A stretch of 63,412 bases of DNA from Candidatus Tenderia sp. (GTDB lineage Bacteria > Pseudomonadota > Gammaproteobacteria > Tenderiales > Tenderiaceae): positions 1-63,412 of the forward strand of contig JANOSY010000020.1 in the NCBI GenBank assembly GCA_031416075.1, given 5' to 3'. The position numbers and the translations under genes were made by a program. Positions 15,078 through 54,370 of this stretch are shown piece by piece. Position 1 is the stretch's first letter; every line of letters begins with the position of its first letter. Below the pieces are notes generated by a model. It was not told the DNA's origin and did not search any database. It saw only the letters and a list, made by a program, of their open reading frames with translations.

Positions 15078-15151
15078 TGGAGCGGGTGAAGGGAATCGAA
15101 CCCTCGTATGCAGCTTGGGAAGCTGCCGTTCTACCATTGAACTACACCCGC
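15078..15151 (-). tRNA. tRNA-Gly (CCC)
   Basis: Reverse complement GCGGGTGTAGTTCAATGGTAGAACGGCAGCTTCCCAAGCTGCATACGAGGGTTCGATTCCCTTCACCCGCTCCA; anticodon CCC; encoded CCA. Confidence 0.97.
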
Positions 15152-15188: not shown

Positions 15189-17078
15189 CTAGCGCTCTGG
15201 TGGTGTTGATGGCAGATTCTGCTGCACCTGTTGTTGTAGCTGTGTCTGCAGCAGCGCTATTTTTTGAGGATCGGCGGCCAACGCTTCAAGCTGTTTGATG
15301 TAGTGGCGCGCACCATCCAGGTCGTTGCTGGCCAATTTAACGGCGGCCAGATTGAAGAGTGACTGGGTATCATCGGCGTTGAGCAGTACCGCAGTTTCCA
15401 GATAGGGCAGTATCTCTTGTGGCGGACGCCCCTGATACATGTAGATCTGGCCGATCCAGCGGTTTGCCTCGCTGTTCTCTTTGATGCTGTTGGTGGCGAT
15501 CAGGAGTGGCAGGGCCTGATCAAACTGTCTCTGGCTTAGCAGTGCCTGGATGGCGGGCAGGTAAAACTCGATGTTGTACGGGGCCGCGCTGACGAGGGCG
15601 AGGTATTCGCGCATGGCCAGTGCCGGTTCGCCCAATGATTCGTAGTGGCGCGCCATCTGGATATGGCCATCAAAATAGCTGATCTCATTTTTAAAACTGC
15701 GGTAGGCAACGGCCTCTGCCTGACTGTTGGCCTTGAAATTGGCGATGGTGCGTTCGCCCGGCCCCTTGGGTGGGTAGGGCCAGTGGTCGGTGAGGTTGAT
15801 GATGCGGATCTCGCCTAAAGCGCGGTCGAAGTCGGTGATGGGCCAGGCGCGGCGATAGAGGGCGGTCGGCAGCATGTTTTTGTCGTCCCATTTATCGCTG
15901 ATAAATCTGTTTTCATGCAGGGTGTCGAAGAAGGCCTCGCTCATCAGCAGATAGCCTTCAACATTGGGGTGCAGGTGCTCCAGCATCAATTCGGCACCGA
16001 CAATATTGTTGGTGGAGGCCTTCTCGAAGTAGCGGCGCATCGCTACCACCGGGGCGTTGAACTCCCCGGCTACCTTGTGGATTATGGCGTTGAACTCCTC
16101 CGGCGCACGAAACCGCAGCCCATCCAGATCCTTGGCCCAGCGGTAACTTTCGTTGGCCATGCCATACATCTGCTGCTGCTCCAGCTGCTGTGCCCAGGCG
16201 TAGGCGATGTCGGCGGGCAGGTGTTCACCATCATCCACCGAGACAAAGGGCCGCTGGTCGCGCAGGTTGCTGACCAGCTCGCTGATCACGACCGGCACCC
16301 CGGCAGCCTTGGCCTTGGCCATGATCTGGCGCAGATTGGCCTCGTAGTTGGCCTTCGCAATCTGGTATGTCGGGCTGTTGTAGGGGATGCTGCGTTCGCC
16401 CACCATCCGCCCCATCAGGGTAGAAAATTGGTTGCCAGATGGGGCACCCAACTGATGGATGAGGGCGTTGAGGCCATTGCGAACCAGCTGTACGGTTTTA
16501 AGCTGTAGCAGTTTTAGATAGGTGGTGATCAGCCAGCGCGACTGTCCAACAGAGTTGGAAGAGGCCGCCCCCAGCGCACCGTAAAATTCGTTGTGGCCGG
16601 CATAGATCAGAATAGCGTCGGGCTGTTGTGCCAGGATCTCATCCATAAAATCGATCAGGGTAAAGCTGTTCACGGCAGCGATGCCGGTATTGACCACCTC
16701 TATCTGTCTGTCAGGAAAGACGTCGGCGAGTCGCTGTGCAAGCAGGCGCGAGAAGAGTACATTTTCCGGGTAGGGCCAGCTGGCGGTTGTCGATTCACCC
16801 ATGACAAAAATGCGGTAACCATTGTCTGGCTTGTTGAGTCGGAACAGCTCCGTGGGTGGTCCCGGGATGTAACCCTGCCGGGGAAAGTAGCGCTGGGCAA
16901 CCAGCGGGTTGGTCATTAAATGGGGCTCGTTGTGCCCTTTTTCGGGGGCGGCGATGAAGAGCTGTTGATCGTCACCGTAGTTAAAGGCGCGCAGCCCTAG
17001 CTCAAACAGCACAAAAAAGAGCAACGGGATGGAGAGTGCCAGGGTGTAAAACAGGTAGAGCCTTTTTCCGGTTGCCAT
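15189..17078 (-). CDS. Membrane-anchored SGNH/GDSL hydrolase-family protein with C-terminal TPRs
   Basis: N-terminal TM plus ELGLR; FVMGESTT (block I), YAGHNE (block III), EHLHP (block V); TPR-like helices. Confidence 0.85.
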   Translation of the reverse strand: MATGKRLYLFYTLALSIPLLFFVLFELGLRAFNYGDDQQLFIAAPEKGHNEPHLMTNPLVAQRYFPRQGYIPGPPTELFRLNKPDNGYRIFVMGESTTASWPYPENVLFSRLLAQRLADVFPDRQIEVVNTGIAAVNSFTLIDFMDEILAQQPDAILIYAGHNEFYGALGAASSNSVGQSRWLITTYLKLLQLKTVQLVRNGLNALIHQLGAPSGNQFSTLMGRMVGERSIPYNSPTYQIAKANYEANLRQIMAKAKAAGVPVVISELVSNLRDQRPFVSVDDGEHLPADIAYAWAQQLEQQQMYGMANESYRWAKDLDGLRFRAPEEFNAIIHKVAGEFNAPVVAMRRYFEKASTNNIVGAELMLEHLHPNVEGYLLMSEAFFDTLHENRFISDKWDDKNMLPTALYRRAWPITDFDRALGEIRIINLTDHWPYPPKGPGERTIANFKANSQAEAVAYRSFKNEISYFDGHIQMARHYESLGEPALAMREYLALVSAAPYNIEFYLPAIQALLSQRQFDQALPLLIATNSIKENSEANRWIGQIYMYQGRPPQEILPYLETAVLLNADDTQSLFNLAAVKLASNDLDGARHYIKQLEALAADPQKIALLQTQLQQQVQQNLPSTPPER

Positions 17079-17165
17079 CGTTGCGCGGTTGATCTCTTGA
17101 TTGGGTTTGGGGTTGAATTGCGATTAAGATAGCGGCCCTGCGGTCGATAGTTTGATCAGGAAAAA

Positions 17166-17567
17166 ATGAGTCACATGATGATGTTAGCAACATACCGGAT
17201 GGAAAAACAGGTAGCACTATTGCTGGCGGCCATCCTGATGGTAGTGGCGGTCTGGCCACTATTCAGTGGTGGTATGTTGGTTTGGCCATGGTTGGCGGCG
17301 GCGCTGTTGCTATTGCTGCTGGCGTGGTGGCGACCGGCATGGCTGACCCCCCTGGCCAACGGTTGGTCGCGGCTTGGCCACTGGTTGGGTACTTTGAATA
17401 GCTACATCATCTTGGCGCTGCTGTTTTTTCTGGTGATTACCCCTGTGGCACTGCTATTTCGGTGGCGCGGGCGTGATGCGCTGCATCTCAGACAGAAAAA
17501 GTTGCACAGCTACTGGCAGACCGAGGCGCGGCAGTGGTCGCCAGAGAGTTTTAAGGATCAGTTCTGA
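17166..17567 (+). CDS. SxtJ-family membrane protein
   Basis: P..L.PL...W..LGH.LG..NS.IIL.LLFF..ITP...GRD.L...SYW...QF pattern. Confidence 0.85.
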   Translation: MSHMMMLATYRMEKQVALLLAAILMVVAVWPLFSGGMLVWPWLAAALLLLLLAWWRPAWLTPLANGWSRLGHWLGTLNSYIILALLFFLVITPVALLFRWRGRDALHLRQKKLHSYWQTEARQWSPESFKDQF

Positions 17568-17716
17568 TGGCGTTTTTAAGTGAGTTGCTGCAGTTCCTCA
17601 AACAGCGCAAAAAACTCTGGTTGCTGCCTGTGGTTGTGCTGTTGCTGCTGTTGGGGGGCATGATTGTCTTTGTGCAGGGCAGCGCCCTGGCCCCCCTGAT
17701 CTATACCGTTTTTTAG
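17567..17716 (+). CDS. SxtK-like/DUF5989 small membrane protein (49 aa)
   Basis: Not in the ORF track. MAFLSELLQFLKQRKKLWLLP...QGSALAPLIYTVF*; TGATG overlap with sxtJ-like gene. Confidence 0.9.
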   Translation: MAFLSELLQFLKQRKKLWLLPVVVLLLLLGGMIVFVQGSALAPLIYTVF

Positions 17717-19519
17717 ATGTGGATACTGGGCATCTCGGCCTACTATCACGACAGCGCAGCGGCGCTGATCCATGACGGTGAGATTATAGCTGCCGCGCAA
17801 GAGGAGCGTTTTACCCGCCAGAAACATTGCGCCGACTTTCCCCGGCAGGCGATTGAGTATTGTCTGCGGGAGGCAGGCATCACGGTTGAGCAGCTCGACC
17901 ACATCGTCTTTTATGACAAACCGTTCCTGAAGTTTGAACGGCTGCTGGAGAGTTACCACGCCTTCGCCCCGTCTGGTTTTCGTTCGTTTGTCACCGCCAT
18001 GCCGCTCTGGCTCAAGGAGAAGCTGTTTCAAAAACGGCTGCTGCAGCGTGAATTGGCGGCCCTGGCGCAGGGACCCGCTGAGGGGCTGGCACTGCGTGAG
18101 CGGCTGCTTTTTTCAGAGCATCACCTCTCACACGCCGCCTCCGCCTTCTACCCATCCCCCTTCGACAAGGCGCTGATCTTGACCATGGATGGTGTTGGCG
18201 AGTGGGCCACCACTTCGGTGATGTTGGGCGAGGGGCGTGATATTCGGCTACTGAAAGAGATCCACTTCCCCCACTCCCTGGGTCTGCTCTACTCCGCCTT
18301 TACCAGTTACTGTGGATTTAAAGTTAATGACGGTGAGTACAAACTGATGGGGCTGGCCCCCTATGGCAAACCCTGTTATGTGGAGCTGATCTGCCGGGAA
18401 TTGATCGATATTGCTGACGATGGCTCCTACCGCCTCAACATGCGCTACTTCAACTACTGCACCGGCCTGACCATGACCAACCGCCATTTTCATGCCCTGT
18501 TTGGTCGGGACCCACGCCAACCGGACTCCCCTATTACTGTGATGGATATGGATCTGGCCGCCTCGGTTCAGGCGGTGGCAGAGCGGGTGATCTTGACGCT
18601 GGCAACCGCGCTGCGTCAGGAGTATGGCATTGATAACCTCTGTCTGGCCGGGGGGGTGGCGCTTAACAGCGTCGCCAATGGCAAGCTACAACGTGCCGGC
18701 ACCTTTGGAAATATCTGGATTCAACCCGCCGCCGGGGATGCGGGCGGTGCGCTGGGGGCGGCGCTGGTGGGGTATCACCTGCATCGGCAGCAGCCACGCC
18801 GTCACCATCCCGCCCCGGATGGCATGAAGGGCAGTTATCTTGGCCCTGCGTTTACTGATGCGGAGATTGAACGGTTGTTACAGACAGAGGGGGTGCCATA
18901 TCAGCGGCTCGAACGGGATGGTCTGGTTAACAGCGCGGCGCAGGCCCTGGCGGATGAAAAAGTGGTGGGCTGGTTTCAGGGGCGCATGGAGTTTGGCCCA
19001 CGGGCCTTGGGCAACCGCAGTATTCTGGGGGATCCCCGTTCGCCACGCACCCAGTCGGTGATGAATCTGAAGATCAAAAACCGTGAATCGTTCCGCCCCT
19101 TTGCGCCATCGGTGTTGAGCGAGGATGTGGCTGACTATTTTGAACTGCATCAGCCCAGCCCCTACATGCTGCTGGTAGCGCCGCTGTTGCCGTCGCGGCG
19201 GCGCCAGTTGTCTGAATCAGAGCGCGAGGTGAACGGTGTCGAACAGGTCAACCTGGTGCGCTCCGATATTCCCGCAGTGACCCACATCGACTACTCGGCG
19301 CGGCTGCAATCGGTGAGTGCAGAGGCCAATCCGCTCTACCATCAGCTCATCAGTCGTTTCAAGGTCTTGACCGGTTATGGTCTGGTGGTTAATACCTCAT
19401 TCAACGTGCGTGACGAACCGATCATCTGCACGCCGCAACAGGCGCTTAACTGTTTCATGAAGACCGGGATGGATGAGCTCTATCTCGGCAGTTTTCGGCT
19501 GCAAAAGCCGCCGCAATAA
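17717..19519 (+). CDS. O-carbamoyltransferase (CmcH/NodU/SxtI family)
   Basis: ILGISAYYHDSAAAL, EHHLSHAASAF, GEYKLMGLAPYG, AGGVALN, EFGPRALGNRSIL, NTSFN. Confidence 0.95.
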   Translation: MWILGISAYYHDSAAALIHDGEIIAAAQEERFTRQKHCADFPRQAIEYCLREAGITVEQLDHIVFYDKPFLKFERLLESYHAFAPSGFRSFVTAMPLWLKEKLFQKRLLQRELAALAQGPAEGLALRERLLFSEHHLSHAASAFYPSPFDKALILTMDGVGEWATTSVMLGEGRDIRLLKEIHFPHSLGLLYSAFTSYCGFKVNDGEYKLMGLAPYGKPCYVELICRELIDIADDGSYRLNMRYFNYCTGLTMTNRHFHALFGRDPRQPDSPITVMDMDLAASVQAVAERVILTLATALRQEYGIDNLCLAGGVALNSVANGKLQRAGTFGNIWIQPAAGDAGGALGAALVGYHLHRQQPRRHHPAPDGMKGSYLGPAFTDAEIERLLQTEGVPYQRLERDGLVNSAAQALADEKVVGWFQGRMEFGPRALGNRSILGDPRSPRTQSVMNLKIKNRESFRPFAPSVLSEDVADYFELHQPSPYMLLVAPLLPSRRRQLSESEREVNGVEQVNLVRSDIPAVTHIDYSARLQSVSAEANPLYHQLISRFKVLTGYGLVVNTSFNVRDEPIICTPQQALNCFMKTGMDELYLGSFRLQKPPQ

Positions 19520-19524
19520 CAGCC

Positions 19525-20736
19525 CTACCAACCGTTACTACCGCCATGCCTGCCGCCGTTAAACGTGCCGTTACCGGTGCCATCATTGTTTTTACAGGCA
19601 CCAAAGCCGGACCAGTTGGGGTTTTGGGTGGAGTCGCAAAAATCGGCGTAGTTGACGTTGGCGGGGTTGAAGGCATCGCCGTTGGCGGCGCCCACATAGG
19701 TATAGGTGCCGTTGCTGCCCCCCTCTTCAGTACCGGCGGTGTAGGTGTAGCGGCCAGCGGTGGGGGTGGAGTTCTGGTTGTCGGTGGCGTAGTTGTAATC
19801 CCCAGTGGTGCCATAGATGGACGAACCGCCCAGGGTCACGGTATTGGTGATCCCCGCCCCGGCCTTTTTGGTGACATTGGTGTGGCGGGTCAGTTGCGAA
19901 TTGATGGCGACATAGTTGATGGTGGTGTCGGTGGCGACCACCGGGATGGCGCTGGTGCTGCTGTGGCCCAGGGCGCGGGCATCCAGGATCACGGTGCTGA
20001 CCATGTCGGTGGCGCTGCCGGTATAGCCGGCACCGTAGGTGGTGTCCTGGTCAGTATTGCCATTTTTAGTGATCTGCGAGATCAAGGGTTTGTTGGCAAA
20101 GGTGTCTTTGAGGAAGATCATCTCGGTATCGGCATCCTTGAGGAACTGGTGCATGATGATCTTGGTGGGGTTGCCGGTGCCGGTGCCGGTTTTGAGTGCG
20201 TCGCTACCGGACACGTCATAGGGTTTGGCCATGTTGTAGAGCTGGTTGCTGGTATTAAAGGCGGTGGTGCCGTTGTAGGCGCTGGCGGTGCGGTAAACGC
20301 CAGAGGTATAGGCAGAACCATAGGTGGAGTCAGCGGCAATAATGTACTCCAGGGCAAAGTTATCACCGAGGGCGTAATCACCAATGATCACTTGGTAGTA
20401 CCACTTGCTGGTGGTGGTGTCCAGGAACATGCGTTGAAAAAAGCCGCCGGGGTCGTCGTGGCTGCCTGCTAACTGGTTGCCGCAGTTGTAGCTGGCGGAT
20501 ACCGAGGTGTAGCAGGCTACCCAGGCGTCGTTGCTGCTGTAGGAAACACCAGTGGTGCTGGCACCGTTATTAATTTTTTCATCGTTATTGAAGTTGAGGT
20601 TGAACTCCGCCTGGCTGCTGGGAATGGCCGGCAGCAGGAGCAGGCTGATGGCCAGGGCTACCCCCGTTGCTATCCTGATTTTTCGTCCGTGGTCGTGAAG
20701 CTGGCCCTCAATGGCGCAATGTTCTGTTAATTTCAT
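19525..20736 (-). CDS. Secreted hypothetical protein, EFxLNF family paralogue 1
   Basis: Signal peptide ending SQA|EFNLNF; shares motifs with the genes at 21124 and 24197. Confidence 0.85.
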   Translation of the reverse strand: MKLTEHCAIEGQLHDHGRKIRIATGVALAISLLLLPAIPSSQAEFNLNFNNDEKINNGASTTGVSYSSNDAWVACYTSVSASYNCGNQLAGSHDDPGGFFQRMFLDTTTSKWYYQVIIGDYALGDNFALEYIIAADSTYGSAYTSGVYRTASAYNGTTAFNTSNQLYNMAKPYDVSGSDALKTGTGTGNPTKIIMHQFLKDADTEMIFLKDTFANKPLISQITKNGNTDQDTTYGAGYTGSATDMVSTVILDARALGHSSTSAIPVVATDTTINYVAINSQLTRHTNVTKKAGAGITNTVTLGGSSIYGTTGDYNYATDNQNSTPTAGRYTYTAGTEEGGSNGTYTYVGAANGDAFNPANVNYADFCDSTQNPNWSGFGACKNNDGTGNGTFNGGRHGGSNGW

Positions 20737-21123
20737 ATCGCACCTGCCTGCTGATCTCGTGTCAGGGCTCCCTCTGACGTTCTTTAATGTGTGCTGAGCG
20801 GTACCCGTATTCAGGGCTTTACTCTGTTTGTCTGTAAGGAAACTCTAATGCTTATTGGTACTGTTATGTATCGGTCAAATAACTTAGAAACTTTAAGGGA
20901 GAAGTCAATATTGGTGCTGTGCAGGCGGGCCTGTAGATTGATTAGTGCCGCGTGTATTGTCTGTTAATAATGTGTTAATGTGACACACATGTTCACAAAG
21001 TGACGCTAATAGTCACGTTTAGATTGTGGGTTTGTGGCGGGTAAGTACAAAAAATAATAATTAAATCAGTGATGTTGCAATTCATGAGAGTTGTCTCGTT
21101 GAGTTAATGGCTTTGAGGTGCCT

Positions 21124-22080
21124 ATGGGGAATCGGCTGTCTGGACATCGTGTAGTACGTGGCCCCCTGTTAGGTGGGCTGCTGCTGATGGTTGCGCCCCT
21201 GGGGGCAGAGTTTGCCCTGAACTTCACCCCCGGCAATGTTGGTGGTGGCGGCGGCTGGGGCGGGGGGGGTGGTGCCGGCGGCTGGGCTGATGTGGAGTGT
21301 AATGGTAGCACCACGGGTGGCAGTGGCTGGGGCGGTACGGGCGGCGGCTGGGGCAGCGGTTTTCGTGGGTGCGGTAACGGTTACTTTCTGCAAGAGACTA
21401 ATAGTGGTTATTACCATGTGATCGTAGGTGACCCAACAACGGACTTTGCGTTGGAGTTCTATATTGGTGGCACCGGTAACTCAGCATCGGGTGGCGATTT
21501 TAATAACTGGCGTTACCCGTTGAGCAGTAATGCGGGGTTGACGGGGAACGGTTCGGGCGACGCCACCCGAGTCCACATGCGGCAGCTGGTCAAGGGTGTG
21601 GGCATGGATCAGGAGTTTCTCAAGGCCCAAAATGCCACCAAGCCTAAAATCACCCAAACCATCAACAACGCTGGTCTTACGTCGCAGTTTTCCGTGGATA
21701 TGACCAACTCATCCTATGCCACCAGGACTACCGCGGGGGTGATGGTGAATAAACAGACACTGGTTGTGGATGGCCTGCCTGTGGGCGCGGCTGACTTTGA
21801 TATGGGTAGGGATAGCCAGACAAGCCAGGTGACGGCGGGGCAATACTCCCGGGGCAGCGGGGTGGGGGCCAGTTATAGCTACCTGTATGGTGGGTTTAAT
21901 GTCACTGCTGTTGACTGGATACGTTACTGCGACCCGGCCCAGAATACGGATCACAAATGTGATTTGGCCGGTGGCACCAGTTTGGGTTCCAGCCGTGGTG
22001 GGTGGGGGGCAGGCGGTGCCAGCTGGGGAAGTGGCACCAGTTGGGGCGGTGGAGGCAGTGGCGGCGGTTTTGGCTGGTGA
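21124..22080 (+). CDS. Secreted Gly/Trp-rich hypothetical protein, EFxLNF family paralogue 2
   Basis: GAGG RBS; signal peptide ending LGA|EFALNF; GGGWGG-type low-complexity tracts at both ends. Confidence 0.85.
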   Translation: MGNRLSGHRVVRGPLLGGLLLMVAPLGAEFALNFTPGNVGGGGGWGGGGGAGGWADVECNGSTTGGSGWGGTGGGWGSGFRGCGNGYFLQETNSGYYHVIVGDPTTDFALEFYIGGTGNSASGGDFNNWRYPLSSNAGLTGNGSGDATRVHMRQLVKGVGMDQEFLKAQNATKPKITQTINNAGLTSQFSVDMTNSSYATRTTAGVMVNKQTLVVDGLPVGAADFDMGRDSQTSQVTAGQYSRGSGVGASYSYLYGGFNVTAVDWIRYCDPAQNTDHKCDLAGGTSLGSSRGGWGAGGASWGSGTSWGGGGSGGGFGW

Positions 22081-22174
22081 TGTGGCGGTCCTCGGCGGGG
22101 GCTGGAAATGGTGTGAGAGTAGTCGGTATGCCGCATAGCTGAACGCCTGCTGGCGTTCCGATTCCATATATTAG

Positions 22175-22265
22175 GGAACCTCTGAATAACCCCATTCGTC
22201 CTGAGCCTGTCGAAGGGCTGGTGACGTAACGTGTTGGCTTTTAAGAGTCCGCCATTAGCACATGG
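22175..22265. mobile_element. Partial copy of the MITE at 25422-25551 (opposite orientation)
   Basis: TTAG|GGAACCTCTGAATAACCCCATTCGTCCTGAGCCTGTCGAAGGGCTGG matches the reverse complement of the 25422 copy; the second end is missing. Confidence 0.75.
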
Positions 22266-22436
22266 GTGTGGCTAGATGAATAGGGTGCGGGCGTGGACCG
22301 TTGGCCGGGCAAAGTTGAGCCGGATAGTGGGAAGCAGCGCCTCACTCCATTGGCGGGCAACGGGGTGTTTGTCGCCGTTCTGAGGTCGATCAGAAAAACA
22401 GTCGCTGAGCAGCAGGGTGACGCCTGGCGGGATGCG

Positions 22437-24128
22437 CTATTTTTTTGCCTGTGGCGGAGTGCCGTATTGGCGTCGGCCAAACACGCCGCAGGCGCTGATA
22501 CCCAGCAGCAGCTCTAGCCAGCCGAATGCACCACCACCACTGGTTGTCTCCTGTCTATTCTGGGCATTGTCGGTTGGCGCGGTGTTCTCTTCTTTGATTG
22601 TATCGGGGTTTGTATCGGGTTCGTCTGGCGGAGTCAGGGGGGTGGCCTCAATAACGGGGGTGGCAGGTAGCACCTCTTGGGACTCAATCAGGAATATTTC
22701 GCTGTTCAGGTCACTATTGCCACCACTCAGGTTGCTGCTGGTATGGAGGGTGATACGTTTAGCATCGGCGCTGATGCTGGGGCGTAGCCGACTGCTATCT
22801 GTACCCGCAAAGGTGAGCTGTTTAACCACGGGACGGCCTGTGGCGTTGAGTGGTGCGTTGAGGTCGATCATGGCTAGCTCATACTTCTTTGATCCGGCGG
22901 CCAGATCAGCGCGGGAGCGGGTGCTAAAGACAATTTTGTCGCCTTGGGCGCTGATCTCGGGCCAGTGGGCGTCATCATCGCTGTTTCTCCAACCGGAACC
23001 ACTGGTGTAGGCGTTGGCATTGTCGCTGAAGGTGAGCTGGCGCAAGCCGCCGCCACTGCGTTGGGCGATGAAGATGACATCAGCAAGAAACGGGTTACTG
23101 CCTGGGACGGTGCGGTTGGGGGTGTTAACCCCTTCACCGTCAGGGTTGATGCAGCCTGAAAAGGCGATCCAGCTGCCGTCGTAGGAGAGGCTGGGTTCAA
23201 AGGCATCTTCAGCCCGGATGTGGACGGGGGCATCCACATCGGTATTGGTTATCTGGGTTGTGTACTGCTTCAGGGTGCTGAAGGTTGCCCCTTGTGCCTG
23301 ATAGCCTGCCAGATCGAAGAGAAATACTTCGTTGTTCCAGTCGTCGTTCATGGGGGGCAGCAGGTCGTTGAAGGAGTCGAAGGCGAGGGTGCTGCCGTCG
23401 CCGGAGAGGGCGACATTGCGTGAGTCGTCGCTGCGGATGTTCCTGCCGGTGGGGTAGGGCACGCCGTGGGTAATCTGTGTCAGTTGTGTGCCATTGGCAT
23501 GGATGACAAAGATCTCTTTGGTATGGTCACTGTTTTGACCGGCAATCAAATCCTGGGTTGATTCAAAGGCGATGGTCTGGCCATCGTCTGAGATGCGTGG
23601 CTTGATCGAGTGTCCACCACTGCCATGGGTTAGCTGGCGGAGATCGCTGCCATCGCTGTTGATAGTGAAGATCTGGTAGTTGGGCAGGTAGTAACCGGCA
23701 TCGGCAAAAAACTCCGGGGGATTTTCGCCGGTCAGATCAAAGTAGGAGGCAAAAACCACCACCTTGCCATTGGCGGAGAGCCGCGGCGGGGTACTGGTGG
23801 TGTAATAGGCAGTGCTCTCCACGGGAGTGGTGGGTCTGGTGGCGTGGGTGAGCTGGCGCAGTGCGGAGCCGTTACTGGCCATGATGTAGAGATTGTCCAG
23901 ATGGTCAGGATTACTGCCGGGGACCACATCAGCATTTGCGGTGAAGACGATGGCAGAGCCATCTTTGGCGATGTCTGGGTCCCGCGCCTCATATTGCAAG
24001 GCGGAGGTAGAGCGGGAGTCTGTTAGCTGCGTAATGGTGACGGTGACGCTGGCCGCCGCGACCGTAGCGCTGGCCAGTAGCGCCCAGGTGGCTAGTCGGA
24101 TAAGGGGGTGTGAGGTGTGGTGGTTCAT
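22437..24128 (-). CDS. Secreted TolB-like/PD40 beta-propeller protein with GlyGly-CTERM anchor
   Basis: Signal peptide; repeated P.IS.DG..I.F.S...DL...N.D...EIF....G..L.QLT; C-terminus SGGGAFGWLELLLG...RR. Confidence 0.85.
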   Translation of the reverse strand: MNHHTSHPLIRLATWALLASATVAAASVTVTITQLTDSRSTSALQYEARDPDIAKDGSAIVFTANADVVPGSNPDHLDNLYIMASNGSALRQLTHATRPTTPVESTAYYTTSTPPRLSANGKVVVFASYFDLTGENPPEFFADAGYYLPNYQIFTINSDGSDLRQLTHGSGGHSIKPRISDDGQTIAFESTQDLIAGQNSDHTKEIFVIHANGTQLTQITHGVPYPTGRNIRSDDSRNVALSGDGSTLAFDSFNDLLPPMNDDWNNEVFLFDLAGYQAQGATFSTLKQYTTQITNTDVDAPVHIRAEDAFEPSLSYDGSWIAFSGCINPDGEGVNTPNRTVPGSNPFLADVIFIAQRSGGGLRQLTFSDNANAYTSGSGWRNSDDDAHWPEISAQGDKIVFSTRSRADLAAGSKKYELAMIDLNAPLNATGRPVVKQLTFAGTDSSRLRPSISADAKRITLHTSSNLSGGNSDLNSEIFLIESQEVLPATPVIEATPLTPPDEPDTNPDTIKEENTAPTDNAQNRQETTSGGGAFGWLELLLGISACGVFGRRQYGTPPQAKK

Positions 24129-24196
24129 AGTATACGTCTCTAAATTAGGTGTATCAGATGTGGGCCGTTCCCTGGTGGTGGGACTCTGCGTGGCCC

Positions 24197-25168
24197 TTAG
24201 TCCTTCCCGCCGCCGCCATAGAGGTGGGTGGCGTTTTGGGCCGGGTTGCGCCACTCTTTCCAGAGTTCTGTCCAGGTATCGAAGTGGTTGCCGGTGCTGC
24301 TTACATACTCATTTTCAAAGCTGCTGCCCGTCATGGAGCTGGTGTAGCGTTTGCTGTAGAGATATTTACCGCCCGTGATGTTGACGCTGCTATCGCTGCC
24401 TGCGGGCATGTTGTTGATATTAAAGTCGCTGACAAAGGCCCCATCGCGGATGCTCATCTGGTTTTTGAGCATCACGCCGGCGATGTTGGCCTGATCAAAG
24501 GTGCTGTTGCTCATATCCAAATCAAACTGATGGCTCAGCGCACCGGCATTGATGTTCTGAGTGATGCGCTGTTTCTTATTAAAACTGGCCTTGGTCACCT
24601 CTTGATAGAGTCCGCCGCTGTCGATCGCCTGACGAAACTGGGTGCTTTTAGGGTTGGCGGTACCGCTGCCGGAGAATTTGGCCGGACCCAGTGGGTCGTA
24701 GGCGTTGTCCGGGCCTTTATCGATGGGCGTCCAGTTGCCAAGTGAGTCTGATATGGGGCCTAAGTCATCCACCTCTGTCTGGGGCAGTGTGTTGAAACCG
24801 CCGTTGTCGTTGTTCATGTAGCGAACAATCTTGATGTAGGACTCCTGCACAAAGTCGCTGTTGGGCAGGCCAACGATGGTGTGGTAATACTGCTCTCCTG
24901 TGGTTGTGTCGCGAATCCGTTCCATCAAAAACGGGCTGGTATCACGGCCATTGTTGTTACGGAACTCATCATTTTCATCACACTTTTCAAAACCACCGCT
25001 GGGGGCACTGGGGCGATTGCAATTGAAATTTAACCACTCCGGATCACCCAGACGGGTGAGCTGGGGCTGGAAGTTGAGTGAAAACTCGGCGTTGGCAGTG
25101 GCTGGAAGTAACATCAGCAGTGCTACAACGGGGCCGCAATAACCTTTATTTGGATATGCCATAGTCAT
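24197..25168 (-). CDS. Secreted hypothetical protein, EFxLNF family paralogue 3
   Basis: Signal peptide ending ANA|EFSLNF; shared family motifs; start could also be 25162. Confidence 0.85.
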   Translation of the reverse strand: MTMAYPNKGYCGPVVALLMLLPATANAEFSLNFQPQLTRLGDPEWLNFNCNRPSAPSGGFEKCDENDEFRNNNGRDTSPFLMERIRDTTTGEQYYHTIVGLPNSDFVQESYIKIVRYMNNDNGGFNTLPQTEVDDLGPISDSLGNWTPIDKGPDNAYDPLGPAKFSGSGTANPKSTQFRQAIDSGGLYQEVTKASFNKKQRITQNINAGALSHQFDLDMSNSTFDQANIAGVMLKNQMSIRDGAFVSDFNINNMPAGSDSSVNITGGKYLYSKRYTSSMTGSSFENEYVSSTGNHFDTWTELWKEWRNPAQNATHLYGGGGKD

Positions 25169-25421
25169 AGGCCCTGTCAGTTTGGGATTGGTAAAATGTC
25201 TGAAACCCACGCAAGGCCATCCGTGAACGAGCAGTGGGGTCTGTTAGAGTGTTGTTTTTATTGATGTTATGTTTTGTGTTAACAGCGGCAAGAATACAAA
25301 AACAGGCCAAATATTAACAATTATTAATAATATAATAATTATTTGTTAATACTTGTGCAATAGATGGCCTGTCTCTATGGCCAGCTCTTGGTGCTGAGAC
25401 GGTGGCCATTGACCTGTTTAG

Positions 25422-25551
25422 GGAACCCCTGAATAAGCCCACCGTTCGTGGTGAGCTTGTCGAACCATGAATGGAGGACAGTTAACCATCAATACGTTAC
25501 GTTGCCAGCCCTTCGACAGGCTCAGGGCGAACGGGGTTATTCAGAGGTTCC
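25422..25551. mobile_element. 130-bp MITE with IS5-like terminal inverted repeats and TTAG target duplication
   Basis: TTAG (25418-21) GGAACCCCTGAATAA ... TTATTCAGAGGTTCC TTAG (25552-55); 15-bp TIR with one mismatch; internal REP-like inverted pair. Confidence 0.85.
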
Positions 25552-25596
25552 TTAGGTAGATATTTGGTTATTACGGGGTGATGTGAGGCGGTCCGG

Positions 25597-26154
25597 TCAC
25601 TCGCGGATGACTTTGCCGCTAATGAGATCGATAATTTTGCTGGGGGCGGTTTTGGCGCTGCTTAAACCGCTCACGGCTGCATCCAGATGGTAGCCAAAGT
25701 AACGCCGTACTGTCAGCAGTGAACGGGCCGGGGTGAGCCCTGCGGGGTTGGCGCTGGTGGAGACAATGGCGCTGCCAAGCTGTTGGCAGAGTTGCTGGGC
25801 GGTGGCGCTGGTGGTGATACGCACGGCGATGGAGTGGTGTTTGCCGCAGAGCCAGCGTGGCACATCGCTACGTAGTGGACAGATCCAGGTGGTGGGGCGG
25901 GGCGTTGCCTGGGTCAATTTGCTGAGTTGTGTTTGATCTTGTATGTCGATGTAGGGCAGCAGCTGTTGCAGATTGGCACCGATGAGGATCAACCCTTTTT
26001 CTTGTGGCCGCTGTTTGAGTTCGAGGATGCGTTCGACGGCCTGGCCATCCAGTGGGTCGCAGCCGAGGCCAAAGACAGTCTCGGTGGGGTAGGCGATAAC
26101 ACCGCCCGCGCTAAGGGCGCGAACGGCTTGGCGGATCTGCCAGGGGGATGGCAC
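25597..26154 (-). CDS. tsaC: L-threonylcarbamoyladenylate synthase (Sua5/YrdC/TsaC)
   Basis: GGVIAYPTETVFGLGCDP, KQRPQEKGLILI, VSTSAN; GTG start next to the purD stop. Confidence 0.9.
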   Translation of the reverse strand: MPSPWQIRQAVRALSAGGVIAYPTETVFGLGCDPLDGQAVERILELKQRPQEKGLILIGANLQQLLPYIDIQDQTQLSKLTQATPRPTTWICPLRSDVPRWLCGKHHSIAVRITTSATAQQLCQQLGSAIVSTSANPAGLTPARSLLTVRRYFGYHLDAAVSGLSSAKTAPSKIIDLISGKVIRE

Positions 26155-26155
26155 G

Positions 26156-27445
26156 TTACTTTTCCTGTTCGCGGGCGACGGCGCGGTAGCCGATGTCGTG
26201 GCGGTAGAACATGCCGTTCCAGCGGATCTTTTTGCAGAGTGTGTAGGCGTTGGCCTGAGCCTCGCCAACGGTCTCGCCCAGACCCACAGCGCAGAGCACC
26301 CGGCCACCGGCGGTGACGACGTTGCCATCTTTGCTGGCGGTACCGGCGTGGAAGATTTTGGCGTCGTCGGAGTCGGCGCCATCCAGACCGTTGATCACAT
26401 CACCTTTTGGATAGTCGCCGGGATAACCAGCGGCGGCGAGCACTACGCCGAGGGCGGCGCGTCTGTCCCATTCAACCGTTGCTTGGTCGAGTTTGCCGTC
26501 GAGGGCGGTGTTGCAGAGGGCGACCAGATCTGACTTCAGCCGCATCATGATCGGCTGGGTCTCGGGATCACCGAAGCGGCAGTTGTATTCGATCACCTTG
26601 GGTGCGCCGCTGGCGTCGATCATCAGCCCGGCGTAGAGGAAGCCGGTGTAGGGGTTGCCCTCGGCGGCCATGCCGCGCACGGTCGGTTCGATGATGTCGC
26701 GCATCACCCGATCATGCACGGCTGGTGTGACGACAGGGGCGGGAGAGTAGGCCCCCATGCCGCCGGTATTGGGGCCGCTGTCGCCGTCGCCAACCCGTTT
26801 GTGGTCCTGGCTGGTGGCCATCGGCAGGATGTTTTTGCCGTCGACCATGACGATAAAGCTGGCCTCTTCGCCGTCGAGGAACTCTTCGATGACAACACGG
26901 GAACCGGCGTTGCCAAAGGCGTTGCCGGAGAGCATGTAGCGGATCGCATCTTCAGCCTCTGCCAAAGTCATGGCGACGATGACACCCTTGCCCGCCGCCA
27001 GACCATCGGCTTTGATGACGATAGGCGCGCCCATTTTACGCACGTAGGCGAGGGCCGGGTCGATCTCGGTGAAGTTCTGGTAGTCGGCGGTGGGGATCTG
27101 GTGGCGCGCCAGAAAATCCTTGGTGAAGGCCTTGGAGCCTTCGAGCTGGGCGGCATTTTTGGTTGGGCCAAAGCAGCGCAGACCGGCGGCGTTGAAGGCG
27201 TCGACCAGACCCAGCACCAGTGGCACTTCGGGGCCAACGATGGTGAGGCCGATGGCGTTGGTTTGGGCAAACGCCACCAGAGCAGCGATGTTATCCACGG
27301 CGATGGCGACGTTTTCCAGCTTCGGCTCCCGCGCTGTGCCGGCATTGCCGGGGGCGACAAATATCTGCTCTACGCCGGGCGACTGGGCCGCCTTCCATGC
27401 CAGGGCGTGTTCACGCCCGCCGCTGCCGATGACTAATACCTTCAT
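26156..27445 (-). CDS. purD: Phosphoribosylamine--glycine ligase
   Basis: [49 protein letters not shown]. Confidence 0.98.
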
Positions 27446-27719
27446 GAATCTGCCTTTTTGTTGCCTATACCCTGGAAGGCGGCGATTTTACCGTATGCGG
27501 CGGGTGACGCACACCCTCAGTATGTCCGGCAGTATGTCGGGCAAAAGGGGTGCGTAATACCCATTTGTTATAGATGGTTGCCTTTATGCGGTGTAAAACT
27601 CACAATAACGGGGTGAAGAGGTCGTCCGTGTGCCGGTTTGTCAGGTAGGATGGGCCGTATGTATTTGGGTGTTAGGGTGGTTTAACACAGTGAAATGTGG
27701 ATATCGCGGGGGTGCGGAC

Positions 27720-30008
27720 ATGGTCGCAAATAGGAAGCTTTCTTGGGTGGCGTTGTTGCTGGCGGTGGGGTCGGTGCCGGTGGTGAATGCAGCTACGTTT
27801 GTTGTGAATACAACGGTAGACGCGGTGGATAGCGCCCCGGGCAATGGTAGTTGTGCGACCGCTGCCGGGCAGTGCAGCCTGCGTGCCGCGATTCAAGAGG
27901 CCAACGTACTGGCGGGGGCTGACGTGATCACTCTGCCGGCGGGCACGTATCGGCTTGATATCGGTGGCCAGGGTGAAGAGGCAGCGGCGAGGGGTGACCT
28001 TGATATAAGCAGTGAAATTGTGATTAACGGGGCGGCGGCTAATACCACGATTGTTGATGGCATGAAGCAGGATCGTGTTTTCCAGGTTCATCGTGCGGGT
28101 GTAGCCACGCTGAATAAACTGGCCATTCGTAACGGTAGTGCCAATGTCGACGGGTTGGGCGGTGGGCTCTCCAACCGTGGTGGCACGGTGACGCTCAATG
28201 ATTGCAACGTCTACCGCAATATAGGCTCTGGTTTTGGCGGCGGGCTGGACAATAACTCCTTTGGTGGTCAGGGCGATGTCAGTAATTCGATGGCGCGTAT
28301 GACCGTTAACCGCTGCACCATCAGTGATAACGTGGTGTTGGGTAACGGTGGTGGGGTCTCCAATAATGACGGTATTTTGGTCATTAATGACAGCACTATT
28401 CGTAACAACTCGGGCGGCCAGTTTGCCTCCAACGTTCAGGGCGGGGGTATCTATAACTCCAGCGCGCTGCAGCTCCCCGGCGCTGGCGAGATGGCGAGTA
28501 TGACGGTGAACCGTACCTTGATCACAGGCCATAGTGTGCTGAGTGATGGTGGTGGTATTTACCACCTGATGGGCAATATGACGATCTCTAACTCCACCAT
28601 TAGTGATAACGAGGCCAAACGTAACGGTGGTGGCATTTTTATTGCCAATACACTGACGGCGCTCTCCACCAACCGTATTGTGCATACGACAATTACCGAC
28701 AACAGCGCCCACGGCAATGATACCTCGGAGCCACCGAAGGGGTTTGGCGGTGGTGGGCTGTTTAACGGCAACCCCTCTAATCCGAACGGGGCGGTGGTAA
28801 CTTATCTGGAGAACTCCCTTATTGCCGGTAATATGATTGGTGGCAACTGTTACAACATCGGCGTGCTGGAAAAGCAGGGTAACTTCATTGATGGCACCAG
28901 CTGTAATAATGCGGGTGATACATCGGGCAGGAGTTATAGCGCGACGGAGATTGGGCTGGGATTGCTGAAGGATAACGGCGGACCAACCCAGACCCATGGC
29001 CTGTTACCGGGCAGTTTGGCGATTAATACAGCGGTGACCGCGCTCTGCAAGCCGGTGGATCAGCGTGGTTATACCCGCCCGGCGTCTGGCTGTGATGCCG
29101 GGGCCTTTGAGGTTGAAGGGGTGGTGCCATCAACGCCGTTAGTGCCAACCCCCTCCTCTTCCGGGGTCTCCACCGATGGCCAGAACAGGGTGCCGCAGGC
29201 ATTCCCTATGCCCTATGTGGCGGTGGCGGGTGAGGCGTTGAACGGGGTCTTGAATGGTGTCGATTTTGACGGTGACCCACTGACCTATGAGATTGTGACT
29301 CAGCCAACCAAAGGCACTATCGGTTTGAGAAATACAAGCGCGACGGCCAACAATGTGATTCCAGGCAGCTTTACCTATGTGGCGGGTTCAGGGGCCACGG
29401 GTTCGGATAGTTTTACTTACAGGGTGTGTGACGTTATCAGCTGTTCCGAGCCGGCACTGATCTCGATTGTGATCAGCAACGGTGCAGCGGTCTCCGATAT
29501 TGGGATCACGTTGGCATCGGGGACGGGCACAGCATCCCCCATCACAGTATTGACGGGGCCAAGCCTGGATGTATTTGCCCCGACGGCAGATTACAACTAC
29601 CCACTGGGTGCGTTCTACTTTAACGTGGCGGTTAACGCCGGGGTGACGGCGGGCAGTGTGACGGTGACACTCAAACTGCCGGCGGCGGCCAGTATTGCCG
29701 CCAATGCGGTGATTCGTAAGCTGGATAACAAGGGGGTGTGGCGTACCCTGGGCAGTGTTCCAAACTCGCTGGAGTCAACCGGTGTGATTGACCGCAGTGC
29801 CAAGACGATTACGTTGGTATTGCGTGACAACGACCGTTTTGATACGGATCCGGCGGTGGGGAGAATCTCTGACCCCGTGGCGATTGCGGTGCCAAAAGTG
29901 GCGGCAGAGGAGAGCATTGCTGCCCGCCCCGCCAGTGGTGGTGGCGCTGTGGCGCTGTTTGGATTGGCAGCGTTGATGCTGGTAGCGGTGCGCCGTCGTC
30001 GGCATTGA
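27720..30008 (+). CDS. Surface protein: CSLREA-type N-terminus, beta-helix/choice-of-anchor Q, Ig/cadherin-like domain, GlyGly-CTERM
   Basis: Signal peptide; AATFVVNTTVD...CSLRAAIQEAN; GGGI repeats; LKDNGGPTQTH...DQRG...CDAGAFE; DFDGDPLTY; SGGGAVALFGLAALMLVAVRRRR. Confidence 0.9.
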   Translation: MVANRKLSWVALLLAVGSVPVVNAATFVVNTTVDAVDSAPGNGSCATAAGQCSLRAAIQEANVLAGADVITLPAGTYRLDIGGQGEEAAARGDLDISSEIVINGAAANTTIVDGMKQDRVFQVHRAGVATLNKLAIRNGSANVDGLGGGLSNRGGTVTLNDCNVYRNIGSGFGGGLDNNSFGGQGDVSNSMARMTVNRCTISDNVVLGNGGGVSNNDGILVINDSTIRNNSGGQFASNVQGGGIYNSSALQLPGAGEMASMTVNRTLITGHSVLSDGGGIYHLMGNMTISNSTISDNEAKRNGGGIFIANTLTALSTNRIVHTTITDNSAHGNDTSEPPKGFGGGGLFNGNPSNPNGAVVTYLENSLIAGNMIGGNCYNIGVLEKQGNFIDGTSCNNAGDTSGRSYSATEIGLGLLKDNGGPTQTHGLLPGSLAINTAVTALCKPVDQRGYTRPASGCDAGAFEVEGVVPSTPLVPTPSSSGVSTDGQNRVPQAFPMPYVAVAGEALNGVLNGVDFDGDPLTYEIVTQPTKGTIGLRNTSATANNVIPGSFTYVAGSGATGSDSFTYRVCDVISCSEPALISIVISNGAAVSDIGITLASGTGTASPITVLTGPSLDVFAPTADYNYPLGAFYFNVAVNAGVTAGSVTVTLKLPAAASIAANAVIRKLDNKGVWRTLGSVPNSLESTGVIDRSAKTITLVLRDNDRFDTDPAVGRISDPVAIAVPKVAAEESIAARPASGGGAVALFGLAALMLVAVRRRRH

Positions 30009-54226: not shown

Positions 54227-54370
54227 AGAGCCTCTGAGTAAGTTCTCCGTACCCAAAACATTTCGTGGTGAGACTGTCGAACCATGGACGGGGGATATGT
54301 CTAGCTATCAATGCGTTGCGTCACCAGCCCTTCGGTAGGCTCAGGGCGACCGGATCTGTTCAGAGGTTCT
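54227..54370. mobile_element. Degenerate third copy of the MITE
   Basis: AGAGCCTCTGAGTAA ... TTCGTGGTGAGACTGTCGAACCATG ... CCAGCCCTTCGGTAGGCTCAGGGCGACCGG ... TTCAGAGGTTCT. Confidence 0.75.

Follow-up and report, generated by a model that had tools for sequence, protein, structure and literature searches.

In the cyanobacterial saxitoxin cluster, the segment sxtI-sxtJ-sxtK-sxtL comprises a carbamoyltransferase gene, two small open reading frames (ORFs) and a gene for a GDSL lipase according to passages of two reports (PMC2684587; PMC2885083), and homologues of SxtJ and SxtK are described in a passage of the second as uncharacterised. The route of VesB in Vibrio cholerae, as outlined in passages of PMC6219818, consists of Sec export, rhombosortase cleavage with lipid attachment, and the type II system. 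Here, a 63,412-nucleotide stretch of Candidatus Tenderia sp. (Tenderiaceae; GenBank assembly GCA_031416075.1, contig JANOSY010000020.1, positions 1 to 63,412; hereafter the window), whose contig belongs to a 3.49-Mb genome that is 99.98% complete, was analysed for a block of about 10 kb between tRNA-Gly and tsaC in which eight genes had been proposed to form one system. Every gene named in that original prediction was found: genes for an SGNH/TPR protein, for an SxtJ-like protein, an SxtK-like (DUF5989) protein and a carbamoyltransferase (CT; these three are called the trio below), for three secreted paralogues (EF1, EF2 and EF3) of a family named EF after its mature N-terminus EFxLNFxP, and for a PD40 beta-propeller protein. 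The block is read here, with a probability of about 0.55, as a juxtaposition of separately inherited units linked by the EF family, whose members would act as partners of surface proteins. In what follows, labels beginning with G denote the genomes compared, L loci, P proteins and C contigs of the genome from which the window comes.

EF1 (403 residues, 19525-20736, minus strand), EF2 (21118-22080, plus strand) and EF3 (24197-25210, minus strand) each begin with a signal peptide ending in A directly before EFxLNF. Their homology, which had been proposed, was supported by pairwise BLASTP (E 1e-10, 6e-21 and 2e-4; identity 25-31%). As judged by family libraries, EF is a sizeable family of predicted secreted proteins without described relatives. 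A word-indexed search returned 47 EF clusters, none with a Pfam domain, and an exhaustive profile search returned 366 representatives (50% identity) at E <= 0.001, 245 of them at E <= 1e-30. The three copies of the window had no Pfam or NCBIfam match and two further copies elsewhere in the genome had no Pfam match; across 149 members of the family, no Pfam family was matched by more than three, and all of these matches were weak. The EF profile had 0 matches among PDB sequences at E <= 10, and Protein Atlas look-ups with EF3 and P0022 yielded no usable match. EF was present in all 16 other Tenderiaceae genomes (1-12 matches each), in 2 of the 44 other families of a sample of relatives, and in 20 of 400 evenly sampled Gammaproteobacteria genomes, these being from nine families.

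The genome holds five EF copies, and the two outside the block have as neighbours metG and an apbC/mrp-type gene in one case and a response regulator gene and uvrB in the other, which does not fit the claim that the paralogues belong to one integrated set. The first of these positions (contig C9; L010, 9777-10736) is a conserved apbC/mrp-EF-metG site that recurs in several gammaproteobacterial families (L013, L147, L148, L154, L158 and L164), with four tandem EF copies in G267. Within each EF paralogue, the C-terminal tail has the same composition as a low-complexity insert close to the N-terminus, both being Gly/Trp-rich in EF2; in the copy on contig C37 (C37:5536-6507, L011) and in copies from G008, G064 and G412, insert and tail are Gly/Met-rich. 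Met-rich sequence is reminiscent of metal-binding motifs. EF1 and EF2, whose ends read '...GW', were also considered as proteins with truncated GlyGly-CTERM tails, and this was rejected, inspection by eye of the three frames past the EF2 stop having shown no hydrophobic helix.

Directly downstream of EF3, 68 bp away and co-oriented, lies the PD40 gene (PF07676, 52.7 bits, cut-off 20.9), which most likely starts at an internal Met before the predicted signal peptide and so runs over 22437-24128 of the minus strand (563 residues) instead of 22437-24254; no terminator-like site was found between the two genes on that strand. PD40 orthologues were found in 7 of 17 Tenderiaceae genomes, belonging to two genera, with an EF3-type gene directly upstream and co-oriented in all seven, and the adjacency recurs in six further public loci, co-oriented in L012 and L073-L075 and divergent in L076 and L077. 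The third paralogue and the anchored propeller, placed together in the original prediction, thus form a conserved, co-oriented pair. In a tree of the family (67 proteins, from 82 ORFs detected of which 11 under 250 residues were excluded and four near-duplicates removed; a quick IQ-TREE run with midpoint rooting only), the EF3 clade comprised six rows with support 98, all of them adjacent to PD40. Prediction of a complex between PD40 (residues 27-515) and EF3 (residues 42-330), made with alignments, gave scores of 0.02 and 0.01, which weigh neither way.

The PD40 protein ends in a tripartite tail made up of a Gly-rich motif, a hydrophobic helix and a basic cluster ('SGGGAFGWLELLLGISACGVFGRRQ...'), conserved across eight aligned orthologues. 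The TIGR03501 score is 11.7 bits, short of the 15.5 required, and the tail is therefore called GlyGly-CTERM-like here and not a certified member; of the original description of a PD40-GlyGly protein, the position and orientation after the third paralogue stand, and the assignment to GlyGly-CTERM falls short of the model's cut-off. The rhombosortase that had been presumed is encoded in the genome, on contig C85 (TIGR03902, 151 bits, cut-off 84), as are two GspD secretins of type II secretion above cut-off. Of 33 EF-bearing genomes, 32 had a rhombosortase above cut-off and the other is 79% complete; in the class sample rhombosortase was present in 19 of 20 EF-positive genomes as against 128 of 400 overall (this tally includes the unpublished genome G311, on which no conclusion depends). 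In 5 of the 33, EF and rhombosortase genes are 7-41 kb apart, which is about the chance level for five copies in 3 Mb.

Two further sorting tails were seen in the genome. A protein of 792 residues with Big_9/cadherin-like domains (27630-30008, plus strand), located 2.4 kb past EF3 and beyond tsaC and purD, carries a TIGR03501 tail of 19.8 bits (cut-off 15.5) and is a second likely rhombosortase substrate. An ORF of 268 residues at C75:2522-3328 (minus strand) has a PEP-CTERM-like tail ('VPEPETV...RRKK'), so the genome may also use exosortase-type sorting.

Large surface proteins other than PD40 also neighbour EF genes. Among 39 EF genes of 37 public loci, 15 were followed by a co-oriented gene for a large secreted protein (FG-GAP, six; PD40, four; an unnamed family of 417-439 residues, two; CARDB, TpsA and other, one each). 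In five further gammaproteobacterial families EF stood beside large surface proteins, namely FG-GAP/cadherin-like proteins in G120 (TIGR03501 tails of 15.6 and 18.2 bits), a 2307-residue CARDB/laminin-G protein in G197 (tail 14.4 bits), a TSP3 protein in G260 (tail 14.1 bits), an FG-GAP protein in G137 and a TpsA protein in G128, the cut-off for the tails being 15.5 bits throughout. Of 129 first non-EF neighbours, 12 matched a permissive tail pattern, compared with 8 of the 596 remaining ORFs of those loci (Fisher p = 2e-5, uncorrected for relatedness). In P0092, a giant FG-GAP protein of 3240 residues, the tripartite tail reads straight into an EF signal peptide. The giant FG-GAP proteins beside EF, which reach more than 3300 residues, share a mature N-terminus F-x-Q-[ST]-[ND]-W-x-GG after the signal peptide (L080, L086, L087, L091 and L094, and P0092).

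It was also considered whether EF proteins themselves form small beta-barrels or half-barrels in the outer membrane, by which their large neighbours are anchored or exported as in autotransporters or two-partner secretion. An EF model from a 149-sequence alignment (pLDDT 87, pTM 0.83), which superseded an earlier model from 49 sequences (pLDDT 70), consisted of antiparallel beta meanders, as the earlier one mostly did; the VIA-align lists were dominated by membrane beta-barrels (Tom40, Z 6.8; LptD, Z 6.0; FhaC, Z 5.7; BamA, Z 5.5), and three of the genome's five EF copies end in Trp or Phe. All of these Z scores, however, lie below the noise level of about 8, with root mean square deviations of 5-11 A (7.6 A over 130 residues for Tom40, the best match), soluble curved sheets scored equally (lipovitellin, Z 6.5; BF3112, Z 6.5), and Foldseek returned nothing at E <= 1e-3 for either model. 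Moreover, the EF C-termini are variable Gly-rich tails with no conserved terminal strand, the TpsA next to EF in L093 and G128 comes with a TpsB pore of its own, and P0092, although it looks like a passenger-barrel fusion, represents a giant protein whose tail reads through into an EF signal peptide. A barrel role for EF is accordingly given very little credence.

The other conserved unit in the block is built around the trio. The gene for the SxtJ-like small multi-pass membrane protein (17166-17567, plus strand; PF19588, 28 bits, cut-off 24.4) overlaps by one base that for the DUF5989/SxtK-like single-pass membrane protein of 49 residues (17567-17716, plus strand; PF19451, 78.4 bits, cut-off 27, full length), the end of which abuts the start of the CT gene (17717-19519, plus strand), so the coupling of the three that had been described is correct and is taken to be translational. 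CT carries PF02543 (N-terminal, Kae1-like; 355.7 bits) and PF16861 (C-terminal, YrdC-like; 236.1 bits) in one chain, both at full length, and aligned with solved enzymes at E 1.3e-91 (NovN, over residues 8-596), 9.4e-85 (GdmN) and 1e-75 (TobZ); with 141 bits it lies below the NodU equivalog cut-off of 1000. No signal peptide was seen on inspection of the CT sequence. It is a predicted O-carbamoyltransferase of the NodU/CmcH/TobZ type, cytoplasmic in location, and the trio would act at the inner membrane face on a membrane-bound or lipid-linked acceptor. An even draw of 401 Pseudomonadota genomes contained 68 with DUF5989, and CT adjoined it in 29 of 30 fetched loci, the sole miss being a locus cut by a contig end, which makes the trio a widespread unit; SxtJ was detectable in 22 of the 30 by single-sequence search. 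A full-text literature search found no paper naming DUF5989.

Upstream of the trio on the opposite strand lies the gene for the SGNH/TPR protein (SGNH1-TPR, 629 residues, 15189-17078, minus strand). Its SGNH part was upheld (PF13472, 45.7 bits, cut-off 32.9, residues 93-376; also PF00657, 34.6 bits, cut-off 23.6), and its sequence contains 'VMGESTT' where the domain starts and 'EHLHPN' close to where it ends, which we take to be candidate catalytic Ser and His blocks. The TPR part was represented by near-threshold matches only, all below cut-off, in the C-terminal third (residues 471-614: TPR_19, 23.7 bits, cut-off 25; TPR_14, 20.3, cut-off 23.5; TPR_16, 22.8, cut-off 32.7); a paralogue in G010, SGNH2-TPR, exceeds the cut-offs of many TPR models. 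A single hydrophobic segment, at the N-terminus, was seen in the SGNH1-TPR sequence. Orthologues adjoin the trio in G001-G004, G007, G010 and G011 (Tenderiaceae) and in G128, which belongs to another family. In L081, a co-oriented run DUF5989-SGNH2-TPR-SxtJ-DUF5989-CT has gaps of -1 to 17 bp, and in G010 the genes for SGNH2-TPR, SxtJ and CT are consecutive. Beyond these genomes, SGNH was found within the 1.5-kb flanks of the trio in 1 of 30 phylum-wide loci, and adjacent to it also in G028 and G035. In Tenderiaceae one or two SGNH-TPR proteins, membrane-anchored and periplasmic, would thus have joined the trio, with the SGNH2 type lying inside the operon in some relatives, and these would act on the same product as the trio. 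In G001, G008 and G013, the positions flanking the trio that SGNH-TPR and EF1 occupy in the window are instead taken by genes for Kelch beta-propeller lipoproteins, of which some contain Big_2 domains (L054, 242-2866; L051, 2-1345 and 3865-6294; L055, 5403-7439 and 9975-12485).

EF1 stands on the other side of the trio, convergent with CT, and the 5-bp spacing reported for the two stop codons was confirmed from the coordinates. The five genes for SGNH, SxtJ, DUF5989, CT and EF1 are kept together, with differing flanks, in G000-G004, G006, G010 and G128 (the contig of G006 starts inside the block, hence no SGNH gene is visible there), and are rearranged yet clustered in G007 and G011; genes of the EF1 type therefore stay beside the trio and SGNH across several genera despite changing flanks. 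The EF1 clade comprised 22 rows (support 99), 16 of them near a CT gene, an SGNH-TPR gene or both. Five of the 39 EF genes in public loci were convergent with CT. Directly downstream of some EF1-type genes, an unnamed family of secreted proteins (413-439 residues, Cys-rich and conserved at the C-terminus, unmatched in Pfam) was observed in G007, G011 and two metagenome loci (L048, 11908-13149; L049, 7792-9108; L074, 7355-8608; L075, 7349-8617); it is absent from the block of the window.

It had been proposed that a single extracellular structure, made of EF subunits and the propeller, is the product of all eight genes and that CT, SxtJ/K and SGNH-TPR decorate this structure, or its glycan, with carbamoyl groups across the membrane. 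Consistent with this, different genera, and a second family too, retain the EF1/SGNH/J/K/CT block although its flanks have changed; EF occurs beside SGNH-TPR even where the trio is elsewhere, as in G008, in which SGNH1 and three EF1 genes lie together and the trio on another contig, and in G010, in which an EF2-like gene is convergent with that for SGNH2-TPR; EF1, the EF3/PD40 pair and SGNH recur within about 10 kb in the window, G008 (L108) and L074-L076; and 18 of 90 EF matches in the 17 Tenderiaceae genomes lie within 10 kb of CT, whereas a 20-kb span makes up less than 1% of a genome of 3 Mb (the tallies of distance to CT include the unpublished genome G055, on which the conclusions likewise do not depend). 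The other 72 matches were more than 10 kb away or on another contig. EF lay within 10 kb of CT in 9 of 14 CT-bearing Tenderiaceae genomes, the exceptions being G005, G008, G012, G013 and G014. Of the 17 EF-bearing genomes from other families, nine had no CT at all, and of the eight with CT the two were adjacent only in G128. The EF3/PD40 pair and CT are on separate contigs in G001, G002, G008 and G011, four of the six other genomes concerned, and no CT was found in G016; the nearest relatives of EF2 (in G008 and G010) are singletons with no trio, SGNH or propeller alongside. Conversely, the trio of 68 in 401 Pseudomonadota genomes is nearly always without EF, SGNH is close to it in only the one phylum-wide locus mentioned, CT lacks an export signal, every solved relative that was found has a small-molecule substrate, and we know of no transporter for an activated carbamoyl group.

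The linkage of EF to CT and SGNH within 10 kb is accordingly partial and confined to one subfamily, EF1; for the family overall the expected association failed. Scattered EF genes, EF genomes free of CT, and the disparity between the trio (68/401) and EF (20/400) together amount largely to independent occurrence of EF, the paralogue-1 subfamily excepted. A carbamoylated eight-gene structure is without direct support and at odds with the distribution data; it is considered improbable, though the EF1/SGNH/trio synteny lends it some residual probability.

Nor does accident appear to account well for the arrangement. The block would in that case be an accretion at a hotspot beside tRNA-Gly furnished with repeats, and the EF1/trio and EF3/PD40 neighbourhoods would be inherited accidents. 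The tRNA-Gly gene (anticodon CCC; 15078-15151, minus strand; ARAGORN; Rfam tRNA, 72.9 bits) does border the block on the left, and inverted copies, about 90% alike, of an element of about 70 nucleotides bracket the PD40/EF3 pair. The left copy (22171-22240, plus strand) and the right copy, which is palindromic and lies between EF3 and tsaC (25420-25560), were delimited by alignment with each other and share an exact 19-mer core (22200-22218 on the plus and 25508-25526 on the minus strand). A further core occurs in the window at 54327-54345 and there are 29 in the genome, from which about 0.8 such close pairs would be expected genome-wide, so no significance is claimed for the bracketing. Other points in favour of accident are that EF is scattered over many contexts, the apbC-EF-metG site conserved in several families among them, that EF1 and CT are convergent, and that the syntenic genomes all come from two related families. 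Set against these, the G+C content of the block (0.52-0.60) is similar to that of the remainder of the window, EF and PD40 have stayed adjacent in two genera and also in divergent loci from metagenomes (PD40 identity 44-59%), EF stands beside other large surface proteins with unrelated partner domains in at least five further families, and the five-gene block persists while both of its flanks change. Chance accretion was on balance regarded as a rather unlikely explanation.

Rfam held no family at threshold for the repeated element. Metagenome contigs from four DNA runs cover the region, with depth peaks only at the tRNA gene, the repeated element and purD, and the right copy coincides with a very high peak in contigs of all four runs. 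A joint of 22215 to 25509 seen in one run was considered as a deletion variant and rejected, since its depth is unlike that of the organism and it is most simply a copy of the repeat elsewhere. At the right border, tsaC (25597-26382, minus strand; NF007919, 204.4 bits, cut-off 175) has in its longest ORF an N-terminal extension of 86 residues, rich in Pro, Ala and Thr, that overlaps purD; NF007919 covers only residues 87-260 of this ORF, so the true start is probably downstream.

The juxtaposition of separately inherited units is therefore preferred, in the following form. Unit A would consist of the trio and SGNH-TPR, with a gene of the EF1 type staying convergent alongside; unit B would be a two-gene operon of EF3 and the PD40 propeller; and EF2 would be a stray paralogue in the block. 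The propeller would be exported by Sec, then processed by rhombosortase at its GlyGly-CTERM-like tail and displayed on the surface by way of type II secretion. The EF proteins would serve as extracytoplasmic partner subunits (carrier, dock or co-factor) of large adhesin-like surface proteins, and each EF subfamily would be co-inherited with its own partner.

Several observations weigh against this reading. Partnerless EF copies dominate (39 of 71 scored EF genes fall in none of four contexts), and two of the genome's own five copies sit at the metG/apbC and uvrB/response-regulator positions described above. The binding of EF to neighbouring proteins is something that we infer, and a confident EF model without a match among solved folds means that structure yields no function. 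The tail pattern is crude, with at least three of the 12 neighbour matches looking false (127, 146 and 399 residues) and two tails seen by eye missed, and four PD40 orthologue tails have no TIGR03501 match, just as the tail in the window is below cut-off. As the Tenderiaceae genomes are not independent, the EF1/trio synteny may be due to inheritance alone, and EF1 and the trio, being convergent, are not co-transcribed. Finally, the recurrence of EF3/PD40 within about 10 kb of EF1, SGNH genes or both (window, G008 and L074-L076) indicates a looser common neighbourhood, which weakens the notion of separate inheritance.

A bolder version of the same idea was also entertained, in which EF is a new class of extracytoplasmic carrier or dock for rhombosortase-sorted and other giant adhesin-like proteins, with a new curved beta-sheet fold and cargo matched to each subfamily (PD40, FG-GAP, CARDB or TpsA), and in which EF1 is a target or co-factor of the trio and SGNH-TPR unit. 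This is doubtful and is put forward as a speculation to be kept in mind; if true, the part of EF1 would be the first clue to the role of the trio outside toxin pathways. As EF recurs beside large anchored adhesin-like proteins, and with rhombosortase in all but one of the 33 EF genomes, it may be a missing component of surface-protein display. Tenderiales are described in passages of 10.1101/2022.05.06.490989 as uncultivated electroautotrophs for which unique surface proteins are proposed to matter, and the EF/propeller system may bear on attachment in them.

When the block is compared with known systems, the nearest counterpart of unit A is the sxtI-sxtJ-sxtK-sxtL segment, which likewise comprises a CT, two short ORFs belonging to the SxtJ and the SxtK/DUF5989 family, and an adjacent GDSL/SGNH protein. 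The window differs in having no other sxt genes, in the order J-K-CT instead of I-J-K, and in that its SGNH protein is predicted to be membrane-anchored and has a TPR-like region (SxtL was compared by description only). With TobZ, NovN, GdmN and NodU, CT shares both domains and a full-length alignment (E 1.3e-91 to 1e-75), but it is not a NodU equivalog and is coupled to two membrane proteins, for which the solved small-molecule carbamoyltransferases have, to our knowledge, no need. Periplasmic SGNH machinery of the AlgX/AlgJ kind, with TPR partners, handles O-acylation of glycans; the window resembles it in the anchored periplasmic SGNH-like domain joined to TPR-like repeats, and a related SGNH protein that neighbours the trio in G035 matches the ALGX model. 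The window's own SGNH protein had no ALGX match, and domain scans found neither a membrane acyltransferase of the MBOAT type nor a polysaccharide synthase in the block. The trio is thus a known but uncharacterised kind of gene unit, common yet unexplained (DUF5989 in about one in six of the sampled Pseudomonadota genomes), and the presence of an anchored SGNH-TPR protein inside trio operons of Tenderiaceae points to a testable, envelope-facing role.

Unit B resembles the GlyGly-CTERM/rhombosortase system of VesB in the tripartite PD40 tail, the rhombosortase and the GspD secretins, and differs from it in that the tail scores short of the cut-off and its helix contains an acidic residue, conserved in the orthologues. 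Those passages of PMC6219818 and PMC3237569 that speak of adjacent genes, PD40 or propellers contain no secreted partner family resembling EF. Lineage-specific uncharacterised secreted proteins beside beta-propeller proteins are mentioned for Tenderiales in passages of 10.1101/2022.05.06.490989 and could be compared with EF by description only. Relative to all of these systems, what is new at the locus is the EF family, together with the way in which it is paired with anchored surface proteins.

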